In this document: positions 3,026 to 34,754 of the stretch, piece after piece
Layout of the letters: the number at the start of each line of letters is the position of its first letter
Position numbering within the stretch: position 1 is the first letter of the stretch
Assembly (NCBI GenBank): GCA_001773695.1
Contig: MEXN01000007.1
Location: 47,388 to 111,387 of the forward strand
Reading direction: 5' to 3'
DNA length: 64,000 nt
From: Candidatus Amesbacteria bacterium RIFCSPLOWO2_01_FULL_48_25
GTDB taxonomy: Bacteria > Patescibacteriota > Microgenomatia > CAZETR01 > Amesbacteraceae
Notes under the pieces: generated by a model
Databases searched by the model: none
Seen by the model: only the letters and a program-made list of their open reading frames with translations
Told to the model about the DNA's origin: nothing
Program-made: the position numbers and the translations under genes

Positions 3026-3444
3026 TACTTAGTTGATCGCTTAATTTTCGCCGGGGCAATTGGTTTGGAGGTAGATGGAGGTGTGGCTTTGGGAGAAGTG
3101 AACTCCATACGAACCATGGGGGCATTGTCGCCTGTTCGGTTGCCAAGCTTAGTTAGACGTAAATACCCGCCGGGGCGAGTTTTGAAACGGGGAGCAATTT
3201 CGTGGACCAGTTTTTCTACCAGGGACTTGTCGGTGACTACTGCCTCGATTGCACGGACGTCGGTCAAAGATCCGTGTTTGGCTTTGGTGATGAGATTTTC
3301 GATCAGGGATACGGCGGCTTTGCCTTTGGCTTCGGTAGTTTCTATCGCCTCGGAACGAATAAGTGCCCCGGCGAGCCCCCTTAGAAGAGCTTGCCGCTGA
3401 TTAGTATCGCGATTGAGTTGACGGCCGAAAACGTTGTGGCGCAT
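3025..3444 (-). CDS. rplQ: 50S ribosomal protein L17
   Basis: MRHNVFGRQLNRDTNQRQALLRGLA... is a typical L17 N-terminus. Confidence 0.9.
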   Translation of the reverse strand: MRHNVFGRQLNRDTNQRQALLRGLAGALIRSEAIETTEAKGKAAVSLIENLITKAKHGSLTDVRAIEAVVTDKSLVEKLVHEIAPRFKTRPGGYLRLTKLGNRTGDNAPMVRMEFTSPKATPPSTSKPIAPAKIKRSTK

Positions 3445-14164: not shown

Positions 14165-14397
14165 ACTTCCTCAAACAAGGCGCGGCGATATTTTCCAGAT
14201 TGGGCTTCCTTGACAAAAATCCGGCCGCATTTTTTGCAGGTAATTTTTTCGGTATCACCCTTTTTTTCTAATTTCCCAGTGGAAAGTTCCACACCACAAC
14301 CTACACAACGACCTTGAGACAAAAGCCATGCCTGAACGGGAGCGATGACGTTTTTGAACACTAGGATTACTTTACTATGTGGAATCCTGGGAGTCAA
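14161..14397 (-). CDS. Small zinc-ribbon protein (TTG start)
   Basis: Two CxxC pairs: CVGCG ... CKKCG. 78 aa. Overlaps the mltG start by 4 nt. Confidence 0.4.
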   Translation of the reverse strand: MTPRIPHSKVILVFKNVIAPVQAWLLSQGRCVGCGVELSTGKLEKKGDTEKITCKKCGRIFVKEAQSGKYRRALFEEV

Positions 14398-14404
14398 CTT
14401 AAAT

Positions 14405-14443
14405 ACCTCACCCCTGACCCCTCTCCTAAATTTAGGAGAGGGG
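14405..14443 (-). repeat. Conserved junction element, copy 1: ACCTCACCCCTG plus the perfect 26-nt palindrome CCCCTCTCCTAAATTTAGGAGAGGGG. The ruvX stop codon lies in the loop.
   Basis: A second, similar copy lies at 21413-21450. Both are situated between co-directional minus-strand genes. Confidence 0.8.
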
Positions 14444-14821
14444 AACTGAGGGGGAGAGGTTAGAATCGAGCCAAGATTGCAAGATTATGGCTGCGGCTAC
14501 AGCGTGCTCGTTGGTTTTGCGTCTTTTTTGTGAAGTATGTAGGAGAGATTGACGGGAGTCGTGAGATGAAAGAGTCTCATCAACAATATTTAATGTTAAA
14601 TGTTTAATGTCTAATGCTTTGATAAATTCTTCAAAATCTTTCTTTAACTTTTTATCCGGGCGGCCGATAATTATTGTTCGGATGGAATTATCATCGACTA
14701 ATTGTTTAATTAACTGAACTGCGGATTTGGTAGGTAAAGTGGTCAACGGCTCGGCCAAAGGGCCAGTAGCCAGAGCAACTCCGACGTGTTTTAGCCCATA
14801 ATCGAGACCCAGGCAATTCAT
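14432..14821 (-). CDS. ruvX: Putative pre-16S rRNA nuclease / Holliday-junction resolvase-like YqgF (RuvX)
   Basis: LGLDYGLKHVGVALA N-terminal motif of the YqgF/RNase H-like family. Confidence 0.8.
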   Translation of the reverse strand: MNCLGLDYGLKHVGVALATGPLAEPLTTLPTKSAVQLIKQLVDDNSIRTIIIGRPDKKLKKDFEEFIKALDIKHLTLNIVDETLSSHDSRQSLLHTSQKRRKTNEHAVAAAIILQSWLDSNLSPSVPLS

Positions 14822-20758: not shown

Positions 20759-21394
20759 TTATTGTACTCTACTGATTGTCCGGGTGATAGAAGTGGACTT
20801 GCCGGATTTGGCGGTGGAGGTGACGACAATGGTATTGAGCCCTGGTTCTAAGGGTAGGCGGAGGTAAAACTGGCCGCCTTTCTCCAGAGCAACTAGTTGG
20901 CGATTTACAGAGATAGTGGCTTCGGGATCGGTGACCCCGGTAATTTCTACCGTCGCCTCACCGGTCGTGGCGCCAGGCTGCGGTTGGGAGATGGTCAGAG
21001 GCGGAGGACCGGTAAGAAGACGGTACTGATAAATCAGATAAACGCCAAAGAAGGCGAATATTAAACAGACGATGGCTGTGATGGTGGTTTTGGGAGTCCA
21101 GAAATCGGGACGGCTAACCGGCTCGGCCATACCGCGGGGGACTATTTGGCCTTGCGGATTTTCGACAAAGTCCCTTCTGAAGACGGCCAAGAGATGATCT
21201 GGATTCAGGTTTAAGTACTCGCTGTAGTTTCTGATAAACCCCCGGGCAACGGCGCCTGAAGGTAATGCCCGGTAGTCGTCCGATTCGATACTTTTTATAA
21301 AATGAGGGCGGATTTTGGTGACTCTGGCCACATCTTCCAATTCTAGTTTTTTACTGACCCGAGTCGCGCTTAGAATTTGACCAGCGGTTTTCAT
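20759..21394 (-). CDS. rodZ: RodZ-like protein (HTH domain, TM segment, C-terminal domain)
   Basis: N-terminal XRE-like HTH ILSATRVSKKLELEDVARVTKIRPHFIKSIE. One TM segment. Pro-rich linker. C-terminal beta domain. Confidence 0.6.
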   Translation of the reverse strand: MKTAGQILSATRVSKKLELEDVARVTKIRPHFIKSIESDDYRALPSGAVARGFIRNYSEYLNLNPDHLLAVFRRDFVENPQGQIVPRGMAEPVSRPDFWTPKTTITAIVCLIFAFFGVYLIYQYRLLTGPPPLTISQPQPGATTGEATVEITGVTDPEATISVNRQLVALEKGGQFYLRLPLEPGLNTIVVTSTAKSGKSTSITRTISRVQ

Positions 21395-21412: not shown

Positions 21413-21450
21413 ACCTCACCCCTGCCCTTCTCCTTACTTTAGGAGGGGGG
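21413..21450 (-). repeat. Conserved junction element, copy 2: ACCTCACCCCTG, CCCTTCTCCT, TACTTT, AGGAGGGGGG. The stop of the upstream 82-aa ORF lies in the loop.
   Basis: Shares the 12-mer ACCTCACCCCTG and the hairpin architecture with copy 1. Confidence 0.8.
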
Positions 21451-21687
21451 CGAGTCGATTGTTTCTCCCAACAACTTTGAAGCACTTGCGCGAATATTTG
21501 CCAGAACGTTTTCTTTTTCATCCGGATTTCTTAAAAAATATAAGGCGTGTCCTCTATTGCCACCTAAAGGTTCGGCTAAAATTGCCTGAATTATTCCAGA
21601 AATATCAAGTAAATCTTTGTGACCAGGAGGAAGAGATGCCTGTTTTTCTCTCAACCTTTCAATAAGCGTTTCCCATTCCGAAGCCAT
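21439..21687 (-). CDS. Hypothetical protein
   Basis: 82-aa ORF. Its stop codon lies inside a conserved hairpin element. Confidence 0.35.
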   Translation of the reverse strand: MASEWETLIERLREKQASLPPGHKDLLDISGIIQAILAEPLGGNRGHALYFLRNPDEKENVLANIRASASKLLGETIDSPPS

Positions 21688-31171: not shown

Positions 31172-31190
31172 ACTTTAATGAATTGAGCTA

Positions 31191-31219
31191 TTGTAGCATG
31201 GGGCCGCGGTAGATTTTGG
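31191..31219 (-). repeat. Orphan duplicate of the last 7 codons plus stop of the nrnA-like gene (the intact tail is at 32465-32493), 28 of 29 nt identical
   Basis: On the minus strand both copies encode KIYRGPMLQ*. Confidence 0.85.
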
Positions 31220-31726: not shown

Positions 31727-31785
31727 AAAGTTCTTTTGCTAGATATTGCACCAGACATATACTCTTCCTGTGGGCGGATCTTCTC
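31727..31785 (-). repeat. Degraded duplicate of the 3' end of the 76-aa gene (intact copy 32232-32408). It carries an internal ~114-nt deletion bounded by a CTAGAT microhomology.
   Basis: An 18-nt block and a 41-nt block are identical to the 32232-32249 and 32368-32408 segments of the intact copy. Confidence 0.85.
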
Positions 31786-32229: not shown

Positions 32230-32460
32230 TCAAAGTTCTTTTGCTAGATCTGGATAGATTTTCGTGAGAAATGGACAGTTCTTACAATCGTTGGTCTTTG
32301 GTTCATTCACCCAATATATTTCATCAGGAGTCAGGTGCCGGTTTATGCAAAGTGAGGCAGTGGCTAGATTGCACCAGACATATACTCTTCCTGTGGGCGG
32401 ATCTTCTCCAAAAAGTTCAGCGTAAGGGAACTTGTCCTTTTCAAAAACGAGCTGGCTCAT
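32230..32460 (-). CDS. Hypothetical small Cys-containing protein (possible Zn-binding)
   Basis: Start placed at Met (MSQLVFEK...), one nt after the stop of the upstream gene. Cys in WCNLATASLC and DCKNC. Confidence 0.4.
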   Translation of the reverse strand: MSQLVFEKDKFPYAELFGEDPPTGRVYVWCNLATASLCINRHLTPDEIYWVNEPKTNDCKNCPFLTKIYPDLAKEL

Positions 32461-32461
32461 T

Positions 32462-33367
32462 TTATTGGAGCATGGGGCCGCGGTAGATTTTGGGGGCGTA
32501 CCAGTCGGCGGGGGCGGTAGTAGTGGGGCCGGGAGTGTCTTTGAATTCGGCAACGGCTTCGGCAGTGCCCGGCGAGGTGGGAATGGAGCCGGCTGGGAAA
32601 TCTGCAGCTGAAATGGGCGCTTGCCTGCGGGCGCCACTCTTCATAAGCCGGGCGGCAGTTTCGAAAGTGCCGGCAGAAATGGCGGGGTGGGTGAAATTCT
32701 GGGTAGCGCCTTCTAAGCCTATAAATAGATTGGTGGCGGCATCGGCAGAAAAAGGAAGACTTAAGGATTCTATAATATACGTCGTGACTTCGATTAATGA
32801 AGTGGCGGTAGGGTCATAGAATTGATGGGGGGTGTAGTTTTCGGCTGGGGGGCGGGTGGTAAGAGAGACCAGCTGGCGGTGGGATTGAAGAAGATCGCGA
32901 CTATTTTCGTAAATTTGACCAAGATCCGAAAGACGATCGACTCCGACTAGAAAAATAGTATCGGCTTGGCTTGCTGGAATATATTTGAGTTTTTGATGAT
33001 CAATAAGGGGAGCGTCGGGTTTGGGAGAGACTACCAGGCGCAGTTCCCCGGACTCGATGTGGTAACTGATCTTATCCACGTGCTCGGTCTGTTCGGGAAA
33101 GGAAATAATTAGATTCCTACCTCCAAAATGGGTGGAAACCGAGTCCACTCCAACCAGGCGGTTAAACTCGACCGTCATGGGGTCGGGGCAGCCGACGTGG
33201 GTGGATTTGCCAACTTCGTCGCAAATTAGTTTCAGGGCCAGAGCAGTGGCTACAGCGTCAAGGCTGGGATTTTGGGGAAGCAAAAAGGCCAGGGATTGGG
33301 AAGAGGTGAGCAGACTCTTTAGTTGGGTAGTATCGGGATCGGCCATGAAATTAAACCTCGACGGCAA
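32462..33367 (-). CDS. DHH-family protein, NrnA-like but catalytically degenerate, with a disordered C-terminus in place of DHHA1
   Basis: Collinear with NrnA. It retains the conserved block NLFIGLEGATQNFTHP. The DHH position reads YHIE and the DxD motif is not conserved. The gene sits in the infB-(rbfA)-nrnA syntenic slot. Confidence 0.5.
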   Translation of the reverse strand: MPSRFNFMADPDTTQLKSLLTSSQSLAFLLPQNPSLDAVATALALKLICDEVGKSTHVGCPDPMTVEFNRLVGVDSVSTHFGGRNLIISFPEQTEHVDKISYHIESGELRLVVSPKPDAPLIDHQKLKYIPASQADTIFLVGVDRLSDLGQIYENSRDLLQSHRQLVSLTTRPPAENYTPHQFYDPTATSLIEVTTYIIESLSLPFSADAATNLFIGLEGATQNFTHPAISAGTFETAARLMKSGARRQAPISAADFPAGSIPTSPGTAEAVAEFKDTPGPTTTAPADWYAPKIYRGPMLQ

Positions 33368-34754
33368 TTATAAGATCGCCGGGTTTAAAGTCAATATATG
33401 GGCTGAACACGGCACCGAATTCCAAGCCAGATTTTACAGTGATGACATTGGATTTTCCTGATTTTAAGGACTTTATTCGAGTTTCTCCGACTAGAATGTC
33501 GCCGCGCATTATCTTTATTTTATGGGACTTGTTAATGACTCCCTCGGTGCATTTACAGCCTGCAATCCGGTCGGTGTTAATTTTGAACTGGGCGATTATT
33601 TGGGCTCGTCCGAGTATGTTCTCCACCACCGGCTGGACTATAAGTTTATCGATTTGCTCCAATAGTTCGTAAATGATTTTGAAGGAGTAAATACTAACTT
33701 TTTCGACTTCGGCAAGCTTGGATACTGAGGCTGGAGCTTTGACATTGAAGCCGACCACAATGCCAGCCCCGGACTTGGCGGTGGAAATGTTGGTTTCAGT
33801 GATATCGCCGGTACCAGAAGATAAGACAGTTACTGTTGGGGGGAGAGCATTTAATATAGCCTCTAAAGAGCCGGCGACATCGGCACGAAGAATGATATTG
33901 AGCCCGGAGGATTCTGTAACTCCCCCTGCATCCCCTCTTGATTCAAGAGGGGGAACTTTAGTGGGAAACATTGGGGCTGCACTAATCAGTGACCCTACAA
34001 CAGGTACTGTGTTTAGACCTAATATTTCAACCGGGGTTGAGGGGGGAGCTTGTTTAATATTTTGACCATCTGAGTCAATTAGAGCCCGGGCTTTACCGAT
34101 GACTTGGGCCTGATAAATTGCCGAACCTACCCGTAAAGTACCATTTTTCACGATAACCGTGGCTAGCGGGCCTTTTTGAGAATCCAGACGTGATTCCAAA
34201 ACTACCGCCGTTGCTGGAAGATCGGGATCGGATTGAGGGGGGTGAAGAGAAACAAGCAATTCAAGCATTTCAAGCAATTCAGGCAAGCCCTGGCCAGTTT
34301 TGGCTGAAATTGAAACCGCAGGAATTTTGCCACCAAAGTCTTCTACTATTACATTGGCTTCAGTTAATTGAGTCTTTACTTTATCGGGATTTGAGTCGGG
34401 CAAATCTGATTTGTTTAGAACCACGACGAAGGGAATGCCGGCTGCTTTTATAAACTCTATTGACTCTCTCGTCTGGGGCATAACACCATCGACCGCTGAA
34501 ATTACGAGAATGGCAATATCGGCAATTTCACTGCCCCGGGAACGCATAGCTGTAAAGGCCGCGTGACCGGGAGTGTCGATAAAAGTCATTAGCTTTAAGC
34601 TTTCAGTCTTTAGCTGGAAGGAGCGGATAGCTTGAGTGATGCCTCCGGTTTCACGGGCGGCAATGCTGGATTTTCGCAAGTAATCCAACAGAGTGGTCTT
34701 GCCATGATCGACATGGCCTAAAATTACTACGATGGGAGGACGAGGGATTTGCAT
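33351..34754 (-). CDS. infB: Translation initiation factor IF-2 (short form, G-domain onward)
   Basis: [21 protein letters not shown]. 467 aa. Confidence 0.92.
   Translation of the reverse strand: MQIPRPPIVVILGHVDHGKTTLLDYLRKSSIAARETGGITQAIRSFQLKTESLKLMTFIDTPGHAAFTAMRSRGSEIADIAILVISAVDGVMPQTRESIEFIKAAGIPFVVVLNKSDLPDSNPDKVKTQLTEANVIVEDFGGKIPAVSISAKTGQGLPELLEMLELLVSLHPPQSDPDLPATAVVLESRLDSQKGPLATVIVKNGTLRVGSAIYQAQVIGKARALIDSDGQNIKQAPPSTPVEILGLNTVPVVGSLISAAPMFPTKVPPLESRGDAGGVTESSGLNIILRADVAGSLEAILNALPPTVTVLSSGTGDITETNISTAKSGAGIVVGFNVKAPASVSKLAEVEKVSIYSFKIIYELLEQIDKLIVQPVVENILGRAQIIAQFKINTDRIAGCKCTEGVINKSHKIKIMRGDILVGETRIKSLKSGKSNVITVKSGLEFGAVFSPYIDFKPGDLIIAVEV

Follow-up and report, generated by a model that had tools for sequence, protein, structure and literature searches.

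The hairpin elements that carry the stop codons of ruvX and of an 82-aa ORF in the window (the whole 64-kb stretch of Amesbacteria DNA analyzed here) are probably solo, ORF-less, G/C-rich class II intrastrand-triplex repeats, i.e., selfish or unstable DNA-level insertions at gene ends and not RNA signals. A repeat class known from E. coli and cyanobacteria would thereby reach CPR bacteria and at least ten phyla. This reading would explain the odd element-encoded tails (RuvX ...NLSPSVPLS*) and linker peptides (IF-2 and LeuRS), and it carries a warning for annotation, as such hairpins should not be labeled regulatory RNAs, terminators, or Shine–Dalgarno (SD) sites. In other genomes, the same motif flanks genes for DUF559 nucleases, an association that is possibly a new result and deserves testing.

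Anatomy of the Window Elements

The sequence-only reading described a ~38-nt element in two copies between co-directional minus-strand genes. The elements are real, and related ones occupy 14405-14463 and 21413-21450. The 12-mer common to them, ACCTCACCCCTG, has two exact matches in the 64-kb window, both on the + strand (at 14405 and 21413); with up to one mismatch allowed, 0.29 matches are expected from shuffles, and 1 of 100 shuffles reaches two. The count of two holds for the exact 12-mers but not for the elements, of which a third, diverged copy lies inside infB at 33917-33952. The features of the three copies are as follows.

14405-14460, plus strand: copy 1, ACCTCACCCCTG-A-CCCCTCTCCT-AAATTT-AGGAGAGGGG-AACTGAG-GGGGAGAGGT
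14443 to 14405, minus strand: copy 1 as a 39-mer, 5'-CCCCTCTCCTAAATTTAGGAGAGGGGTCAGGGGTGAGGT-3'
14405-14414, minus strand: predicted third-strand block of copy 1, GGGGTGAGGT; 10/10 canonical purine-motif triads against AGGAGAGGGG
14415-14417, minus strand: loop 2 of copy 1 (TCA), between the purine arm and the predicted third strand; 3 nt, cf. the TM_ECO pattern (PMC4666352)
14418-14443, no strand: hairpin of copy 1, CCCCTCTCCT-AAATTT-AGGAGAGGGG; perfect 26-nt palindrome
14451-14460, plus strand: second predicted third-strand block of copy 1, GGGGAGAGGT; 10/10 triads, 7-nt loop 2
21413-21450, plus strand: copy 2, ACCTCACCCCTG-CCCTTCTCCT-TACTTT-AGGAGGGGGG
21413-21450, minus strand: copy 2, decayed, CCCCCCTCCT-AAAGTA-AGGAGAAGGG-CA-GGGGTGAGGT; 8/10 stem pairs, 9/10 triads
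33917-33952, minus strand: copy 3, variant, CCCCTCTTG-AAT-CAAGAGGGG-ATGCAG-GGGGAGTT; 9/9 stem pairs, 8/9 triads

The core of copy 1 at 14405-14443 was delimited correctly, but the element is longer than described: an outer arm, GGGGAGAGGT, pairs with ACCTCACCCC to form a nested palindrome at 14405-14460. This outer stem, in which 14451-14460 pairs with 14405-14414, is present in the minimum-free-energy fold. Folded as DNA, copy 1 reaches −18.9 kcal/mol on one strand (z = −4.6 vs shuffles) and −19.4 kcal/mol on the other (z = −5.2); the fold tool does not model triplexes, and these energies describe the hairpin only. Copy 2 shows no such advantage over shuffles (z = −1.0 and −1.6 for the two strands). 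The palindromes themselves are as first described, perfect over 26 nt in copy 1 (14418-14443) and paired at 8 of 10 positions in copy 2.

Both stop codons were also placed accurately. The TAA of ruvX (14432-14434) and that of the 82-aa ORF (21439-21441) lie inside the hairpin loop, and the 5' arm that precedes them encodes P-L-S in ruvX and P-P-S in the 82-aa ORF, whose protein ends in ...IDSPPS*. Copy 3 is positioned in frame in the variable linker of IF-2 (..KVPPLESRGDAGGVTE..; infB spans 33351-34754 on the minus strand), and the same linker harbors other motif-like peptides, e.g., PSPKLGEGRKGEV, in related Microgenomates. The orientation relative to the host gene is identical for all three window copies.

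Of note, the window also contains a 41-nt direct repeat with 100% identity (31745-31785 and 32368-32408) and a 31-nt repeat with 97% identity (31189-31219 and 32463-32493). These pairs, ~0.6-1.3 kb apart, suggest local duplication around 31-32.5 kb.

Triplex Geometry and Relation to Known Repeats

The 12-mer is no SD box; it mirrors the purine arm and is predicted to be the third strand of the triplex. Its minus-strand form GGGGTGAGGT, which is the conserved “tag” across the repeat family, is a mirror of the purine arm AGGAGAGGGG, with A kept or swapped for T. Mirror repeats, which to our knowledge cannot arise through replication, mark a third strand in antiparallel position on the purine strand (G·G-C, T·A-T, and A·A-T). 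The proposed unit on the G-rich strand, read 5' to 3', consists of a pyrimidine arm and, beyond a loop, its purine complement, followed by a second loop of 2-7 nt and a G-rich mirror block; in single-stranded DNA, the hairpin would form, and the 3' block would occupy the third-strand position on the purine arm.

All four window readings (copy 1 on each strand, copy 2, and copy 3) contain the three blocks of class II, namely a 5' pyrimidine block, its complementary purine block, and a 3' antiparallel-compatible block. Under the strict ITxF rule (stem of 6-15 nt, at most one mismatch, loops of 1-6 nt; PMC4666352), the minus strand of copy 1 and copy 3 qualify. The plus strand of copy 1 has a loop 2 of 7 nt, and copy 2, with two stem mismatches and one triad mismatch, falls outside the rule and looks decayed. 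A DNA structure of hairpin plus third strand is a well-supported prediction for these elements.

The architecture of the window elements is the one that goes by the names BoxC, PIT elements, and TM_ECO in E. coli, with the pattern CCCTCNCCC N3-6 GGGNGAGGG N3 GGGNGAGGG (Holder et al. 2015, PMC4666352). TM_ECO is a class II purine-motif intrastrand triplex whose stability in vitro, as a single strand, was demonstrated by CD and NMR; the evidence for triplex formation is confined to such single strands of the E. coli variant, and the triplex was detected neither in duplex DNA nor by in vivo DMS footprinting (PMC4666352). [quoted passage not shown] TM_ECO has been linked to local genome variability, and no mobility genes were found nearby (PMC4666352).

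The present elements share with BoxC/PIT/TM_ECO the order of a C arm, a loop of 3-6 nt, a G arm, a loop of ~3 nt, and a mirror G block (Hoyne & Maher 2000, 2002; PMC4666352), as well as G/C-rich stems of 9-10 nt with variable loops. They are likewise dispersed in multiple copies with inverted pairs and unbiased orientation, features seen in the related loci, the window itself holding three copies in 64 kb. The words are near-identical (GGGAGAGGG / GGGTGAGGG in E. coli vs GGAGAGGGG / GGGGTGAGG in the window). The literal TM_ECO pattern is nevertheless unmatched, with the window stems (CCCCTCTCC / GGAGAGGGG / GGGGTGAGG) shifted in register by one base. Judged by these words, the window elements belong to the class as a sequence variant with a shifted register and are not TM_ECO itself. 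There are further differences. The hosts are CPR bacteria and many non-proteobacterial phyla, and the family overlaps coding sequence at gene ends and in frame, whereas TM_ECO was reported to be always intergenic (PMC4666352). In contrast to published TM_ECO work, in which there is no mobility gene, the present family is tied to DUF559.

Among the three options offered by the sequence-only reading, a REP-like repeat comes closest, in that the elements are dispersed, multi-phylum, palindromic, and polymorphic for presence and absence. Similar to RAYT-mobilized REP/REPIN sequences, they are short tagged hairpins without coding capacity, occur as singlets and inverted doublets, and are enriched between convergent genes. 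However, they are not REPs in the strict sense. The window copies lack the GTAG/CGTC tag, there is no RAYT gene nearby, and their tag mirrors the stem, which is unknown for REPs. No Y1 transposase recurs among the neighbor genes of the related loci, and the motif is absent from the RAYT-associated REP literature lists and supplementary tables checked. Rickettsia palindromic elements (RPEs) offer another parallel, as palindromic repeats that reside in frame in coding genes, including essential ones, and are translated as an extra peptide. RPEs are longer and unrelated in sequence to triplex-motif repeats, and we know of no triplex geometry or associated nuclease gene in them.

Probable Insertion at ruvX and the 82-aa ORF

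The product of the gene upstream of copy 1 is assigned to RuvX by Pfam (PF03652) and has the C-terminus ...LDSNLSPSVPLS*. The features around its 3' end are as follows.

14432-14461, minus strand: element-encoded RuvX C-terminus N-L-S-P-S-V-P-L-S plus TAA (14432-14434, in the loop)
14369-14397, minus strand: relic of the ancestral ruvX 3' end, now non-coding; promoter-like TTGACT-17 nt-TAAAGT
14359-14361, minus strand: GTG, conserved start of a 66-aa zinc-ribbon-like gene; gene call in L001/L002, with GTG or ATG aligned in relatives

RuvX ends at, or at most ~7 residues past, WLDS(H/N/Q) in 12 of 13 homologs, and only homolog P0007 (Microgenomates Gr01-1014_16), with the tail NLSLSVPLS, shares the tail found in the window. 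At the DNA level, copy 1 is present in the window and in the related locus L122, while alignment shows the site to be empty in L124 and L126; copy 1 is absent from L128 too. The old ruvX 3' end persists downstream of copy 1 (TTGACTCC...TAG). In L124 and L126, which are without the element, its TTGACT encodes the last RuvX codons, L-D-S. The promoter-like TTGACT-17-TA(A/G)A(G/T)T is found at a fixed distance, with TTGACT 29 nt from the start of the next gene, a small gene upstream of mltG/yceG, in the window, L122, L124, and L126 alike.

The site of copy 2 is empty in L127, where the homologous ORF ends in ...GETKDES* and the flank TGTGGTATTCTTC..TTTGATGAAAAC is conserved. Copy 2 is also absent from L128, which is without the whole 82-aa ORF. 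In the window, this ORF (21439-21687) lies between ftsK and a RodZ-like gene; its L127 homolog (3240-3425, Gr01-1014_16) is uncalled and may be truncated. In L128 (Amesbacteria 47_9), ftsK and the RodZ-like gene are 7 nt apart.

Relatives have empty sites and other C-termini, so the element is the source of the RuvX tail, of the tail of the 82-aa protein, and of both stop codons. The sequence-only reading had expected the existence of only two copies, together with unrelated C-termini in relatives, to indicate chance or a recent local duplication; most relatives do have unrelated C-termini, but this is due to the insertion of a family member and not to chance. We infer that the direction of the event is insertion rather than loss, and the empty sites support selfish insertion at gene ends as the likely history, in which the repeat would have entered the 3' ends of ruvX and the 82-aa gene as well as the IF-2 linker. 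There is an apparent duplication of ~9 nt (the L-D-S codons) at ruvX. At other full-length copies, which have inverted tags, target-site duplications follow no consistent pattern, and no transposition mechanism has been established. As for a MITE-type parent, the only linked gene among the loci examined is DUF559, which is not a known transposase.

Between the window and L122, identity amounts to 87.7% in copy 1 vs 69% in the ruvX DNA of these two species. The loop is GAATTC in L122 and AAATTT in the window, a two-sided change that leaves the palindrome perfect. This high conservation and the compensatory change suggest constraint or gene conversion rather than neutral junk.

The position of the stop codon follows from composition. 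In arms made up purely of purines or pyrimidines, all six frames are free of stop codons, and only the A/T-rich loop has one. Translation would run into the arm (P-L-S) until the loop gives TAA; therefore, a stop in the loop would be expected without any function being needed. The next start codon is also more remote than the 7-17 nt claimed initially, a distance that rested on mechanical TTG starts. The conserved GTG at 14361 is 44 nt downstream of copy 1, with the promoter-like site in between, and the conserved ATG of the gene after copy 2, at 21394, is 18 nt away. In view of the evidence for insertion and these distances, the stop in the loop is judged to be a by-product of insertion, and any effects of the element on expression would be incidental.

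Distribution and Co-variation of the Family

The 20-base pattern ACCTCACCCCTG N0-2 CCCNTCTCC was scanned against one genome per species. The scan returns at least 119 loci in at least ten phyla, far beyond chance (~3 expected by our own calculation). Hosts among the matches listed include Chloroflexi, Bacteroidota, Ignavibacteria, Acidobacteria, Cyanobacteria, Bosea, Planctomycetes, Gemmatimonadetes, and CPR bacteria. In nearly all of the matches listed, the complementary arm GGAGAGGGG, for which the pattern does not select, occurs after a variable loop; a second GGGGTGAGGT often follows this arm, and some loci among these matches carry 4-6 copies or inverted pairs. The pattern is also found in 17 viral contigs.

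Among the matches listed, and with crude ORF calls, there is no orientation bias relative to flanking genes (43 vs 41), and copies occupy 20 convergent-gene gaps vs 7 divergent-gene gaps. In-frame copies inside ORFs occur in IF-2 (window), in LeuRS, and in a 608-aa protein with two ..SPSPHGEGSGVRS.. insertions. The latter protein, from a Paludibacteraceae MAG (L075, 557-2383), carries the in-frame motif insertions LSPSPHGEGSGVRS and LSHSPNGEGSGVRS, and one insertion is present in the L040 and L059 orthologs. Rfam covariance models applied to the window and 18 related loci give no gathering-score match, and E-value mode returns generic hairpin/miRNA noise. A full-text search with DNA words and translated peptides (e.g., GEGSGVR) retrieves only unrelated eukaryotic matches, and plasmid BLAST of copy 1 gives three weak, uninformative matches.

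The third strand varies together with the stem. Over 223 hairpin sides, a mirror alignment of the tag outscores a direct one in 111 and falls behind it in 17. There are 105 near-perfect matches in the mirror orientation and 45 in the direct orientation, and mirror co-variation reaches p ≤ 0.02 in 25 sides vs 4.5 expected. The tag tracks the stem variant, such that the arm GGAGAAGGG occurs with the tag GGGATGAGG, AAGGGGAGGA with AGGTGGGGTT, and AAAGGGGG with GGGGGATT. This tracking argues that the triplex geometry is under selection and adds comparative evidence for what the 2015 in vivo footprinting was unable to reveal. RNA does not form purine-motif triplexes (Semerad & Maher 1994, as cited in PMC4666352); the co-varying third strand is a DNA-only feature, which speaks against the RNA-level readings.

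A sub-class of the motif (L150, L152, L159, L163, L172, L225, and others) has a loop 2 of 12-18 nt between the purine arm and the putative third strand. This long loop itself folds as a mini-hairpin, e.g., tgCCGAAGGc or CACGCgaaGCGTG.

RNA-Level and Host-Level Alternatives

A cis-acting RNA hairpin at the cistron end, acting as an mRNA 3'-end stabilizer, a processing site, or an insulator of ruvX from the downstream promoter and gene, is unlikely. The hairpin of copy 1 is very stable, its conservation between the window and L122 (88%) includes a compensatory loop-proximal change, and the three window copies share one orientation relative to their host genes. REPs at most 15 nt from a stop codon reportedly affect translation in E. 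coli (Liang, Rudd & Deutscher 2015). However, the family as a whole shows no orientation bias among the matches listed, copies reside inside ORFs, and the closer relatives without the element retain the operon layout. On the mRNA strand, copy 2 folds like shuffles. The stem is followed by TCAGGGGTGAGG, which lacks a T-run, and the scan for intrinsic terminators reports no site at the element. PIT elements have neither promoter nor terminator activity in E. coli, according to Hoyne & Maher (2002) as cited in PMC4666352. Moreover, a co-varying third strand would be useless in an RNA hairpin. The earlier suggestion of an RNA processing or stability hairpin thus finds no support.

Quite unlikely, too, is a DNA structure that benefits the host, i.e., a replication or transcription pause site, or a recombination or instability hotspot kept for useful variation (adaptive instability, Holder et al.). 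Such a role would agree with the greater rearrangement of TM loci among E. coli strains (PMC4666352), with the replacement of the fabI-ycjD-TM locus by a different island in O157:H7, and with the conservation of the orthologous copy 1. It is at odds with the absence of any positional logic across genomes and with the decay of copies such as copy 2, and selfish DNA more typically shows a link to a nuclease gene together with in-frame invasion of essential genes. Against the selfish-repeat reading itself stand the conservation of copy 1, the presence of only three copies in 64 kb, the lack of a consistent target-site duplication, and the lack of a DUF559 gene in the window.

Translational coupling, or presentation of an SD sequence, in which AGGAG and GAGGT in the 3' arm and tag pass ribosomes on from termination in the loop to the next start, is very improbable. 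SD-like strings are present, and in DUF559 cassettes the upstream motif is often found a few nucleotides before the nuclease ATG. In the window, however, the distance from GAGGT to the conserved start is 44 nt for copy 1 and 18 nt for copy 2, with AGGAG farther away, and a promoter-like site separates copy 1 from the next gene. Relatives without the element have the same start context and gene arrangement, and family members occur in every orientation and also in convergent gaps. Chance similarity or a recent duplication confined to the window, for which the mere two exact 12-mers in 64 kb might speak, is refuted by the at least 119 independent loci with the 20-base pattern and an unselected complementary arm, as well as by the orthologous copy in another species (L122), and its probability is negligible.

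Four other candidates were dropped: a KOPS/SRS-like polarity signal, as the palindrome cancels polarity; a G-quadruplex, as the G-runs per strand are too few; an attC-like site, as R''/R' core complementarity is missing; and an anti-SD mimic, as the start codons are too distant.

Association with DUF559 Nucleases

Clustering of the ORFs that neighbor the repeats initially gave housekeeping genes only and then a leuS cluster and small ORFs, the latter with a DUF559 domain (PF04480, E-values of 1e-29 to 1e-37). In L026, L071, L083, and L085, tagged hairpins flank the DUF559 ORF at no more than ~100 nt on either side, and in L106 a hairpin is seen on one side only. In L026 and L085, the whole DUF559 cassette, with triplex-motif linkers, lies in frame in LeuRS just before VFTTRPDT, while L082 has a solo palindrome only at the same LeuRS site; these three are Bacteroidota genomes. 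The stem and tag of the metagenome cassette L164 are exactly those of the window.

The association was also assessed in 80 DUF559 loci from metagenomes, picked on protein sequence alone. A purine/pyrimidine hairpin is found within 220 nt in 60 of the 80. Mirror tags flank DUF559 in 54 (about 1.4 expected, from a background of 0.018 per 440 nt) and are present on both sides in 26. In 5 of 25 cases, the hairpin contains the stop codon of DUF559.

The full-text literature searched yielded no paper linking DUF559 or ycjD with BoxC or an intrastrand triplex. A review of the PD-(D/E)XK superfamily places DUF559 in a Vsr/DUF559/DUF2726 group together with a group I intron homing endonuclease (PMC3424549). 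The cassettes resemble free-standing Vsr-like PD-(D/E)XK homing endonuclease genes (e.g., I-Bth0305I) in being small, putatively selfish nuclease genes of patchy distribution. Unlike genes of the I-Bth0305I type, the DUF559 cassette, known from sequence, lacks an intron or intein, has triplex-motif hairpins at its borders, and can be read through in a host protein.

Solo copies such as those of the window would derive from DUF559 cassettes flanked by two motifs. We tentatively propose, with somewhat less than even confidence, that the BoxC/PIT/triplex repeats are the termini and ORF-less remnants of an unrecognized mobile cassette. Its DUF559 (Vsr-like PD-(D/E)XK) nuclease of ~110-125 aa is hypothesized to recognize or process the triplex or hairpin, and the stop-free ends would allow in-frame residence in essential genes (leuS and the infB linker). 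If so, E. coli YcjD would be the long-missing partner of the BoxC repeats, and the mirror co-variation over dozens of stem variants would for the first time provide comparative evidence that triplex pairing itself is selected in vivo. The 30-year-old question of the identity and spread of BoxC/PIT would then become an experiment that is feasible in E. coli K-12.

The E. coli ycjD Locus

In K-12, the DUF559 gene ycjD encodes the C-terminus ...RRSPSP* and has its TGA inside the loop of a degenerate motif (L226, NC_000913.3 1351041-1351840). It is followed by a duplicated ycjD 3' fragment and then by TM_ECO no. 9. As far as sequence can tell, the layout of ycjD is the same as that of the other DUF559-motif loci.

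ycjD is an accessory gene; of 5,426 complete E. coli genomes, 3,378 (62%) carry it. In 60 evenly spread E. coli records, TM-matching places number 9-23 in ycjD+ strains (median ~14, with the ycjD locus counted) and 1-11 in ycjD− strains (median ~3), a roughly threefold difference in TM copies that is confounded by phylogroup.

A solo-motif “scar” at the ycjD site of ycjD-less O157:H7 was considered and rejected, as the locus has been swapped for a different island with no motif at the junction. In O157:H7 FRIK2455 (L227), the segment adjacent to fabI is a TetR/RND efflux island, and homology to K-12 (L226) stops ~40 nt before TM.
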